A stretch of DNA of 64,000 bases from a plasmid. The notes under the pieces were generated by a model. The model saw only the letters and a list, made by a program, of their open reading frames with translations, searched no databases and was not told the DNA's origin. Both the position numbers and the translations under genes were made by a program. Below are positions 37,340 to 39,039 of the stretch, in pieces (the stretch's first letter is position 1; the number at the start of each line of letters is the position of its first letter). The stretch is from the sequence record NZ_CP015380.1; one strand, given 5' to 3'.

Positions 37340-37873
37340 TTAGACTCCGAGTGTTACTTTTTTGCAAAAATCAATGTAGTTCTTACAACCAAACTTAGTT
37401 ATGATATTACTTCTAAATCTATACGTAGTTTTTGGATTTATCTGCAAGATAGATGATATCGAATATATACTTTTACCTTCCATTATTAAGGAAATAACTT
37501 GAGCTTCACGGTATGTCAGATAGTCAGATGGTGTCTCTAATTTATCATTTGTGAACACATCTATATTTTTAACAGAACTGAAAAAATTAGATAGCGGTTG
37601 GCGTGAAATAATAGTATGCATAAATGGTACATTCGTAATAGCTCTTTCAGAGAAAGAAATTCTAATTAACTTATCCTTTGATCTAAAATAGGTGCTTATA
37701 GCTAATACATTCACGTTTGCGATTCTGTCATCTACAAAAACGATCATTTCATCAAAAGACATGCATCTTAAATAAAACCCTATTTCATTTGACTTTATCC
37801 ATGTTGGATTATCACAAATATGAGTGAACGCCTGAAATAATAAAATATCATCAGTTAGAACTAAATGTTTCAT
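37340..37873 (-). CDS. LuxR/GerE-family HTH transcriptional regulator with atypical N-terminal domain
   Basis: C-terminal HTH LTYREAQVISLIMEGKSIYSISSILQINPKTTYRFRSNIITKFG. The N-terminal ~110 aa are receiver-like but lack obvious phospho-acceptor context. Confidence 0.55.
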   Translation of the reverse strand: MKHLVLTDDILLFQAFTHICDNPTWIKSNEIGFYLRCMSFDEMIVFVDDRIANVNVLAISTYFRSKDKLIRISFSERAITNVPFMHTIISRQPLSNFFSSVKNIDVFTNDKLETPSDYLTYREAQVISLIMEGKSIYSISSILQINPKTTYRFRSNIITKFGCKNYIDFCKKVTLGV

Positions 37874-37971
37874 ATCATACCTTGGGAAACATAATTTTTA
37901 TAGAAAGAAACTCATATGATTTCATGCCATAAATTATTAATTTATCTTCAATTAAGAAATAGCACTTCTAA

Positions 37972-38172
37972 CTATCTTAGTAGTATTAAATCTTGAGGAG
38001 AGTACAGAGCATCATCGTTACAGCATGAAATACACTTTGTAGCTCTTATTTTTGAAGTCGGAATATTATCATCATCAATTTTCTTTATCGTAAGCAGTTT
38101 GCATGTTCCATTTAAGATGACATTATCTCCGACATGCAACAAATTTCTATTTCTATCATAAGCATTCAACAT
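37972..38172 (-). CDS. 66-aa Cys-containing protein immediately downstream of the sigma-32 paralogue
   Basis: The ORF lies 21 bp after the sigma gene stop on the same strand. Cys residues are in the pattern C-x22-C-x2-CC. There is no homology-based support. Confidence 0.3.
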   Translation of the reverse strand: MLNAYDRNRNLLHVGDNVILNGTCKLLTIKKIDDDNIPTSKIRATKCISCCNDDALYSPQDLILLR

Positions 38173-38193
38173 AAAATCCCACCAAATAATTTA

Positions 38194-39039
38194 TTAGTCA
38201 TTCTCTATTGATACACGAAGCTTTCTTAACGCCTTATTTTCTAATTGCCTTATTCTTTCAGCTGAGACACCATATTCTTTTGCTAGCTCATGCAGCGTAA
38301 GTTTCTTGTCATTTAGCCAGCGAGAATGAATGATATGCTGACTTCGTTTGTCTAAATCATTCATTGCTGATCCTAGTTTATGTAATAAGTATTTTTTCCA
38401 ATCATTAGCTTCGATATCACTAGCAAAATCTGAGTTCCTATCGTGTAAGTATGGAGACAAAATTAATACGTTGTCATCATGGCTACCTGTTTCAAATGCC
38501 ATATCTGCTGCTGCTAATCGCAATTCCATATCAATAACATCTTGTTCAGGTACTTCTAGTTTTTTTGAAATTATGTCTACTTCATCTTTAGTCATCCAAC
38601 CTAGATGCTGTTGTGATTTCCGTAAGTTGAAAAATAATTTCCGATGAGATCTTTTAGTTACAACTTTAATAATTCGCCAGTTCCGAAGAACATATTCATG
38701 AATAGCTGCTTTTATCCAATGAATAGCGAATGAGGCTAGACGTATACCTAGTTTTGGATCAAAGCGATCAATCGCTTTCATTAGTCCTAAATTTCCCTCT
38801 TGAATCAAGTCTATCAGCGGAAGATGATACCCTTTATAATCCTTTGCAATATATACGACAAAGCGTAGGTGTGATAACACAAGCCTTTTAATTGCGTATG
38901 AATCGCCATGTGAATAGGCCTCTTCGACTAACGCTCTCTCTTCATCGGCACTTAATCTAGGATAGGATTTTATCGTGTTCATATATAAATAAAGAGAGTC
39001 GTAGTTTTTAACAAATAACTCACCATTCAGTATACACAT
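38194..39039 (-). CDS. sigma-32 (RpoH) family alternative sigma factor, accessory paralogue
   Basis: Near-colinear with E. coli RpoH (recalled from memory). It has LSADEERALVE, region 2 LSHLRFVVYIAKDYKGYHLPLIDLIQEGNLGLMKAIDRF, the RpoH box SHRKLFFNLRK and region 4 GVSAERIRQLENKALRKLR. Confidence 0.8.
   Translation of the reverse strand: MCILNGELFVKNYDSLYLYMNTIKSYPRLSADEERALVEEAYSHGDSYAIKRLVLSHLRFVVYIAKDYKGYHLPLIDLIQEGNLGLMKAIDRFDPKLGIRLASFAIHWIKAAIHEYVLRNWRIIKVVTKRSHRKLFFNLRKSQQHLGWMTKDEVDIISKKLEVPEQDVIDMELRLAAADMAFETGSHDDNVLILSPYLHDRNSDFASDIEANDWKKYLLHKLGSAMNDLDKRSQHIIHSRWLNDKKLTLHELAKEYGVSAERIRQLENKALRKLRVSIEND

Follow-up and report, generated by a model that had tools for sequence, protein, structure and literature searches.

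The stretch of 64,000 nucleotides analysed here, referred to below as the window, comes from plasmid record NZ_CP015380.1 and carries three consecutive open reading frames (ORFs) on the minus strand within positions 37340-39039. The first encodes an intact accessory RpoH (sigma-32) paralogue of 281 amino acids (38194-39039; Pfam and NCBIfam matches), the second a small YdfZ-family protein of 66 amino acids (37972-38172; Pfam PF14001) and the third a LuxR/GerE-type helix-turn-helix (HTH) regulator of 177 amino acids with an uncharacterised N-terminal part of 110 residues (37340-37873; GerE match). In the NCBI annotation the three products are already named RpoH, "putative selenium delivery protein YdfZ" and "helix-turn-helix transcriptional regulator". 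The sigma stop codon is separated by 21 nt from the start of the 66 amino acid ORF, which is in the same reading frame as the sigma gene and is preceded by a Shine-Dalgarno-like GGTGGG, and a further 98 nt separate this ORF from luxR. An intrinsic terminator scan over 36700-39600 predicted none, which makes co-transcription plausible, and given the gap lengths sigma, ydfZ and luxR are probably co-transcribed. The three-ORF region has a G+C content of 29-36%, as compared to up to 52-59% elsewhere in the window.

The window does not belong to a chromosomal island but to an F-type plasmid of Hafnia alvei, and its transfer and replication genes are of the F type and related to those of a H. alvei plasmid. 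The sigma paralogue is found on 41 contigs, the longest of 132 kb, and since the ordinary Hafnia RpoH, which is about 55-57% identical to it, resides on contigs of 4.7-5.0 Mb, the paralogue represents a true accessory plasmid copy. When the locus was compared by megablast with the PLSDB plasmids and 5,426 E. coli genomes, nothing matched. An earlier reading of the window, made from the sequence only (the sequence-only reading), had described a complete RpoH-family sigma factor with the RpoH box RKLFFNLRK in AT-rich mobile DNA next to MscS, adhesin and cfa genes, followed 21 nt downstream on the same strand by an ORF with the cysteine pattern C-x22-C-x2-CC, and in all these points it is borne out by the base composition, the coordinates and the matches given below.

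Gene order is the same in five other copies of the island, and the 66 amino acid ORF and luxR accompany the sigma gene in each copy examined. The six copies are 99.85-99.9% identical in DNA, with zero substitutions within the three genes, so that a ratio of nonsynonymous to synonymous substitutions could not be calculated across them. Protein variants of the three ORFs differ by at most 4 residues, and all ORFs are intact in every full-length copy or variant recovered. The conservation of the small ORF beside rpoH, to which the sequence-only reading had attached importance, is thus present in every island copy but carries no weight, as the copies are a single clone and co-occurrence of the two genes is uninformative on selection.

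A divergent plasmid-borne RpoH

The sigma factor passes the RpoH equivalog cutoffs of TIGR02392 (rpoH_proteo, for the RpoH of gamma- and betaproteobacteria; 349 bits, cutoff 323.1) and NF005143 (362.3 bits, cutoff 241) and stays below that of the other sigma-32 equivalog model NF005693 (203 bits, cutoff 315). Pfam places Sigma70_r2 at residues 53-122 and Sigma70_r4 at residues 225-275, and the alignment runs without frameshift or internal stop. At 100% identity the protein matches WP_052439973.1, "RNA polymerase sigma factor RpoH [Hafnia alvei]". When region C was tested for the RpoH box in the form Q(R/K)(K/R)LFFNLR, eight of the nine motif positions were identical: RKLFFNLRK is found at residues 133-141, preceded by a histidine in place of Q132, which is invariant in 118 orthologues. 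The gene thus encodes an intact accessory RpoH-family sigma factor, a very divergent plasmid-borne RpoH xenologue already annotated as RpoH in public databases.

The degree of divergence is best seen from the distribution of its relatives. In a search of 5.8 billion proteins the cluster of the sigma factor itself, at 90% identity, is followed by a gap and then by proteins of at most 58% identity. It is 51-52% identical to other plasmid RpoHs and 55-57% identical to chromosomal RpoHs (55% to that of E. coli), and in a neighbour-joining tree its branch, which is very long, arises at the base of the Enterobacterales. Of the 155 columns conserved to at least 97% in an alignment with the 118 orthologues, 118 (76%) are unchanged in the plasmid sigma and 37 are altered, E112A being one of the changes at near-invariant positions; the RpoH of an E. 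coli IncY plasmid keeps 146 of the 155. The Hafnia paralogue is the most divergent intact gamma-type RpoH recovered. Enterobacterial chromosomal RpoHs are far more alike, those of Hafnia, Leminorella and Regiella differing from the E. coli protein at scattered positions only. With the latter the plasmid sigma shares regions 2 and 4, the RpoH box, the -35 contacts, H107/W108 and T128, while it is set apart by the 55% identity, the 37 near-invariant changes, a deletion of two residues and a different 5' leader without an Rfam match. Two RpoH-family sigmas in one cell are also found in alphaproteobacteria (RpoHI/RpoHII of Rhodobacter, RpoH1/2 of rhizobia), where the regulons of the two may overlap and still be distinct (PMC3441632). 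Those paralogues are chromosomal and belong to alpha-type lineages, whereas the Hafnia paralogue is of the gamma type and plasmid-borne.

The residues by which E. coli sigma-32 contacts promoter DNA and the beta-flap have been defined by cryo-electron microscopy of the open complex and checked by mutagenesis (PMC10216364). Of these, 8 of the 11 DNA-contact residues and 5 of the 6 beta-flap interface residues are kept in the plasmid sigma. Identical are the four -35 contacts L253, E265, R266 and R268, the spacer contact T128, the pocket residue F104 and the wedge residues H107 and W108; three DNA contacts differ, two of them (N94D and V97L) within the pocket for A-11 of the -10 element and the third (K130R) where the extended -10 is contacted. 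The recognition helix of region 4.2 (SAERIRQLE) is unchanged except for a V to I substitution. An inactivating change in region 2.4 or 4.2, which would have spoken against a functional sigma factor, is absent from the alignments. Region C carries T129K and Q132H and also differs at position S131.

A second group of changes, several of them non-conservative, falls in the parts of the protein through which sigma-32 is controlled. Control by DnaK/DnaJ, the signal recognition particle (SRP) and FtsH acts through residues 47-55 of region 2.1 and through R91, and the substitutions A50D, K51E, I54N and R91P are known to uncouple sigma-32 from it (PMC4823717). In the plasmid sigma L47S, A50I, I54V and R91D are found in this region, K51, L53 and L55 are kept, and positions 50 and 54 are still hydrophobic; the substitutions found are different from the known dysregulating ones, and they speak neither for nor against the independence from DnaK and FtsH that the sequence-only reading had proposed. 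In the DnaK-site region two residues are deleted directly before the conserved YL-D motif.

The start of the sigma mRNA may form a hairpin (38962-39052, minus strand; folding prediction). The Shine-Dalgarno segment AUAGGAUUUU (39052-39043) pairs perfectly over 10 bp with AAAAUCCUAU at +69..+78 (38971-38962), corresponding to codons 23-26. Throughout the range of 20 to 50 C the minimum free energy structure includes the hairpin, and at 37 C AGGA is unpaired with a probability of 0.001. The 130-nt leader folds with z = -2.2 and is more stable than 97% of dinucleotide shuffles (9 of 300 fold as well), and when the first 34 codons were recoded synonymously 400 times, the Shine-Dalgarno sequence was buried as tightly in only 0.5% of cases. 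An Rfam search of the locus, leader included, returned nothing at E<=1. In principle the element resembles the translational thermosensor of rpoH, as the ribosome-binding site would be buried, but it does not resemble it in sequence, and it is regarded here as a candidate translational control element.

Genes accompanying the sigma factor

The 66 amino acid protein scores 51.2 bits against PF14001 (gathering score 27), and 42.1 bits against TIGR03318, which is under the cutoff of 49.7; the NCBI name is nevertheless YdfZ. A HMMER search of 1.84 billion representatives gave only five matches, with two further small YdfZ relatives, and a word-index protein search recovered the cluster of the protein itself only. 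The best match outside this cluster is a 67 amino acid chromosomal YdfZ of Hafnia paralvei and H. alvei (56% identity), whose gene stands alone between those of an iron-containing alcohol dehydrogenase (Fe-ADH) and an aquaporin-type channel (MIP). In a six-sequence YdfZ alignment that includes the E. coli protein, all 19 invariant columns are kept in the plasmid protein (YDRNRN, G15, V18, G22-T23, I29, I32, I42-R43, K46, P59, L62 and L65). It thus agrees with YdfZ (PF14001/TIGR03318) in length and in all invariant positions, and differs in being plasmid-borne, in following a sigma gene in operon-like fashion, where other ydfZ genes stand alone, and in two extra cysteines: of cysteines 24, 47, 50 and 51, C47 and C50 are common to the Hafnia chromosomal YdfZ, while C24 and C51 are new. 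The chromosome of H. paralvei ATCC 29927 encodes two YdfZ paralogues, which share 56% and 39% identity with that of the plasmid, and a plasmid-bearing Hafnia would therefore carry three. In annotations YdfZ appears as a putative selenium delivery protein. What is known of ydfZ in E. coli concerns mainly its FNR-activated promoter (PMC13343975), and the literature uses the gene as an FNR-dependent reporter, the function of the protein not being established.

The sequence-only reading had proposed that this cysteine-containing protein acts as an anti-sigma factor or zinc-dependent modulator, a role to which its family membership lends no support. The motif H-x3-C-x2-C of zinc-binding anti-sigma (ZAS) factors is incomplete, as C47-x2-C50 is present and R43 occupies the histidine position, and no anti-sigma domain match was obtained. 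A PDB sequence search gave nothing significant; the AlphaFold2 (AF2) monomer is of low confidence, with a predicted local distance difference test (pLDDT) score of 58, and Foldseek found no match to it in the PDB with E < 1. When the 80 YdfZ loci of 80 species were searched within 5 kb on either side with the sigma factor (by tblastn), the LuxR protein and MscS as queries, none had a match, so that among the YdfZ loci compared the adjacency of rpoH and ydfZ is unique to the Hafnia island.

The product of the third gene has a GerE HTH at residues 118-166 (37.8 bits, cutoff 23.5). This agrees with its earlier description as a LuxR-family regulator, but the receiver-like N-terminus of that description is not detectable: neither the whole protein nor residues 1-113 match the receiver domain PF00072 even at E<=10. 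Pfam shows no autoinducer-binding domain, and the AF2 model is unusable (pLDDT 47). A word-index search with the protein found no homologue outside its own cluster, and the only distant full-length relative found is encoded, without annotation, on a Pantoea plasmid (27.8% identity). It is reminiscent of GadE and DctR (YhiF) of the E. coli acid fitness island, which are of similar size (175-177 amino acids), have an N-terminal part of about 110 residues without recognisable sensor and a C-terminal LuxR HTH, and, like the plasmid gene, are encoded in an AT-rich stress island. Homology to these proteins was considered and is not supported, the similarity being confined to the HTH (E = 0.004 for DctR, not significant for GadE) with 21-22% identity in the alignment. 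A second LuxR-family gene, 5 kb away (44435-45049, plus strand), encodes a complete response regulator (Response_reg and GerE) and is followed by a DUF1440 gene (46974-47492, plus strand); no cognate kinase was seen near it among ORFs of at least 120 amino acids.

Convergent with the sigma operon is a gene for a YbdG (MscM)-like channel of the MscS family (35663-36811, plus strand; Pfam MS_channel_2nd and 3rd), which is 43% identical to E. coli YbdG. The convergent luxR and mscS genes are 528 bp apart, and between them there is an ORF for a strongly hydrophobic 81 amino acid product (37040-37285, plus strand) which has no gene call in related contigs. The channel is 66-70% identical, over 90-99% of the protein, to MscS proteins from Salmonella (IncHI2), E. 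coli (IncY) and Klebsiella plasmids whose genes lie directly beside an rpoH. Such a channel is found beside the plasmid rpoH in all four close plasmid matches listed and also on the Salmonella IncHI2 plasmid, which makes the association of rpoH and mscS a recurrent one on enterobacterial plasmids (examples at 5575-6720 of locus L094 and 4601-5536 of locus L006). In the IncY and IncHI2 plasmids inspected (n=2) a Clp ATPase gene follows the pair. Second rpoH copies, which the sequence-only reading had called unusual in enterobacteria, are indeed uncommon but not rare on plasmids, as several dozen plasmid records of E. coli, Klebsiella and Salmonella carry a gene annotated rpoH. On E. coli plasmid pE16EC0715-3 the accessory rpoH (6959-7816 of the retrieved stretch) is flanked by IS5, IS1 and IS26 and lies 1.7 kb from genes of the transmissible stress-tolerance locus (tLST), namely those for an HtpX-like protein, psiE-GI, kefB-GI, trx-GI and hdeD-GI.

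What the Hafnia island has in common with these plasmid-borne rpoH-mscS-Clp loci (ClpG/ClpK-like; on pFec10-like IncY, IncHI2 and other plasmids, sometimes by the tLST or locus of heat resistance, LHR) is the accessory rpoH on a conjugative plasmid and the linked YbdG-like MscS gene. The other plasmid sigmas share 74-78% identity with chromosomal RpoH and retain 146 of the 155 conserved columns, whereas the Hafnia sigma is 51-52% identical to them and keeps 118; their rpoH and mscS genes are divergent and about 240-440 bp apart with the Clp ATPase gene downstream, whereas in Hafnia the two genes are convergent with ydfZ and luxR between them. No Clp-sized ORF is found in or beside the Hafnia island, which in this respect lacks a ClpG/ClpK disaggregase. 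Common ancestry of the Hafnia sigma with the other plasmid RpoHs was also considered and is unsupported, as there are only two shared derived residues (Q254H and K272N) and no grouping in the neighbour-joining tree; since the Hafnia sigma is no closer to the plasmid sigmas than to the chromosomal ones, common descent of the rpoH-mscS pair would have to be argued from the channel alone. The linkage of rpoH and mscS is not discussed in the paper on pFec10, which does not mention rpoH, or in the tLST review, and a literature search found no description of a Hafnia plasmid rpoH or of a plasmid rpoH beside ClpG/ClpK.

Divergent from the sigma gene is a cyclopropane-fatty-acid synthase paralogue (cfa, 39502-40652, plus strand), whose product is 66% identical to E. 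coli Cfa. In the window it is split into two ORFs, both halves matching Pfam CMAS, by the loss of one C from a C8 run near 40044 (C8 to C7). The gene had been taken for dead in the sequence-only reading, an assignment that is not supported: the five other island copies have longer runs and intact Cfa proteins of 383-387 amino acids. Compared to them the window has four single-base homopolymer deletions within 3.9 kb, near 40044 (C-run) and at 39434, 36909 and 36876 (A-runs), and the split is therefore most likely homopolymer under-calling, that is an assembly error, and not pseudogenisation. Other apparent frameshifts in the window may likewise be artefacts of this kind. Taken together, rpoH, ydfZ, the ybdG-like mscS and cfa look like AT-rich, diverged "shadow" copies of enterobacterial core stress genes.

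Further upstream of mscS are found a gene for an inverse-autotransporter adhesin of 2180 amino acids (28193-34735, plus strand; from its translation), of the intimin/invasin type with about a dozen near-identical tandem repeats of about 100 amino acids, and a gene for a 148 amino acid protein (34876-35322, plus strand) which is conserved in all island copies and has a weak match to FxLYD_dom (23.5 bits) and to no Pfam family. The adhesin gene has a G+C content of 53-59%, the surrounding DNA of 24-37%. IAT_beta and Big_2 are the Pfam families found on the adhesin of two other island copies; in other copies the adhesin has 1710 amino acids and different C-terminal domains or is truncated, and it is accordingly the variable part of the island.

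Targets and possible role of the plasmid sigma

Both strands of the window were scanned for sigma-32-type promoters with the consensus CTTGAAA-N12-16-CCCCATNT. At up to 3 mismatches 19 matches were found, fewer than expected by chance (24.7 +/- 5.3 in composition-matched shuffles). When up to 4 were allowed, two poor matches appeared upstream of the sigma gene. The proposal of the sequence-only reading that the sigma factor drives genes of the island finds no support in these figures. As the DNA-reading residues are conserved, host-chromosomal promoters of the sigma-32 type are the simplest inference for the targets of the sigma factor.

The interpretation that we favour, with moderate confidence, is that F-type plasmids of H. 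alvei carry a small cluster of accessory stress genes, the sigma factor of which would form a holoenzyme active at sigma-32-type promoters. Because conservation extends to the core RNA polymerase contacts (RpoH box, region C and beta-flap interface), to the residues reading the -35 element and to those wedging open the -10 element, the protein should assemble with the core enzyme and initiate at such promoters, and its targets would lie mostly in the chromosomal heat-shock regulon of the host and not in the island. Its control is probably distinct from that of the chromosomal copy, as suggested by its own AT-rich promoter region, the predicted 5' hairpin over its own ribosome-binding site, the substitutions in the chaperone/SRP/FtsH feedback region (L47S, A50I, R91D) and the reshaped DnaK-site region. 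The genes that are probably co-transcribed downstream, for a paralogue of Hafnia YdfZ and then for an orphan LuxR-type HTH regulator, would form part of the same cluster. The flanking YbdG-like channel and cfa are diverged copies of core envelope-stress genes, and the channel ties the cluster to the rpoH-mscS pair which on plasmids of Enterobacteriaceae is found near a ClpG-type disaggregase and heat-resistance genes.

Several points weigh against this interpretation. The overlap of the regulon with that of host sigma-32 would follow from residue conservation only. No plasmid target was identified, since even at up to 4 mismatches the consensus does not occur upstream of mscS, the gene for the 148 amino acid protein, the adhesin gene, cfa or luxR. 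The hairpin is predicted from a single sequence and in silico stays closed up to 50 C, and the longer leader of 260 nt is unremarkable (z = -0.6, as compared to -2.15 for E. coli rpoH). The known island copies are nearly identical, so that comparative evidence for selection on the gene order is absent, and the sigma factor is less similar to the plasmid RpoHs than to the chromosomal ones. Finally, N94D, V97L, K130R, T129K and Q132H could shift promoter preference or the affinity for the core enzyme.

This last point leads to the alternative that survives best, although we consider it unlikely: a sigma factor of shifted promoter specificity, which would act, possibly together with the LuxR regulator, on plasmid genes or on some of the host genes by way of a motif missed by the consensus scan. 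It would account for the very long branch and the identity of only 51-58% to every other RpoH, for the presence of these five substitutions among the 37 changes at near-invariant columns, and for an island without canonical sigma-32 promoters. Against it stand the identity of all four -35 contacts and of the wedge pair and the almost unchanged recognition helix; moreover N94D is also present in 2 of the 118 orthologues, and position 97 varies between V, I and M among them.

Distinctly less probable is that the three genes are decaying passengers without current function, carried in AT-rich and probably silenced DNA. Their extreme divergence, the low G+C content as compared to other parts of the plasmid, the lack of close relatives outside one clone and the failure to find target promoters would all fit. 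The three ORFs are however intact in all full-length copies and variants, and at 43% divergence the sigma factor still keeps 76% of the near-invariant columns and every core motif and YdfZ all its invariants, which together indicate long purifying selection.

On a par with it, and so rather improbable, is an extension of the favoured reading in which the sigma-32 paralogue resists feedback and has a translational switch of its own, made up of the hairpin and the control-region changes, and in which YdfZ serves as a recruited modulator that responds to redox state or selenium. If true, the plasmid could reprogramme the heat-shock regulon of its host independently of DnaK/FtsH homeostasis, and the recurrent pairing of rpoH and mscS would mark a wider, undescribed class of mobile "proteostasis override" modules.

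The least probable is a sigma/anti-sigma-like module, in which the cysteine-containing protein binds the sigma factor, perhaps by way of zinc or redox chemistry, and the sigma factor drives mscS, the adhesin gene and cfa: the tight 21-nt spacing, the Shine-Dalgarno sequence of the small ORF itself, its four cysteines (the CxxC pair plus the C24 and C51 that Hafnia chromosomal YdfZ lacks) and an adjacency unique to the island, which could reflect a new function, are outweighed by bona fide membership in the YdfZ family with all invariants kept, by the missing anti-sigma domain and ZAS histidine, by a count of 0 of 80 for sigma genes beside ydfZ elsewhere, by the lack of a sigma-32-type promoter upstream of any island gene and by the clonality of the copies, which deprives co-occurrence of its meaning.

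For the biology of these bacteria the favoured reading, an accessory sigma-32 acting at host promoters from a conjugative plasmid, would mean that a mobile element could set the chaperone and protease levels of its host. This may have a bearing on the heat and process tolerance of food-associated Enterobacterales; H. alvei is an organism of cheese and meat. The locus also offers a test of a link between YdfZ and stress-sigma control. The combination of divergence with preserved DNA-reading residues, the feedback-region changes, the candidate hairpin and the undescribed rpoH-mscS linkage makes the locus worth an experiment, and the divergent Hafnia sigma may serve as a natural experiment on which residues of sigma-32 are dispensable, especially in the feedback-control region.

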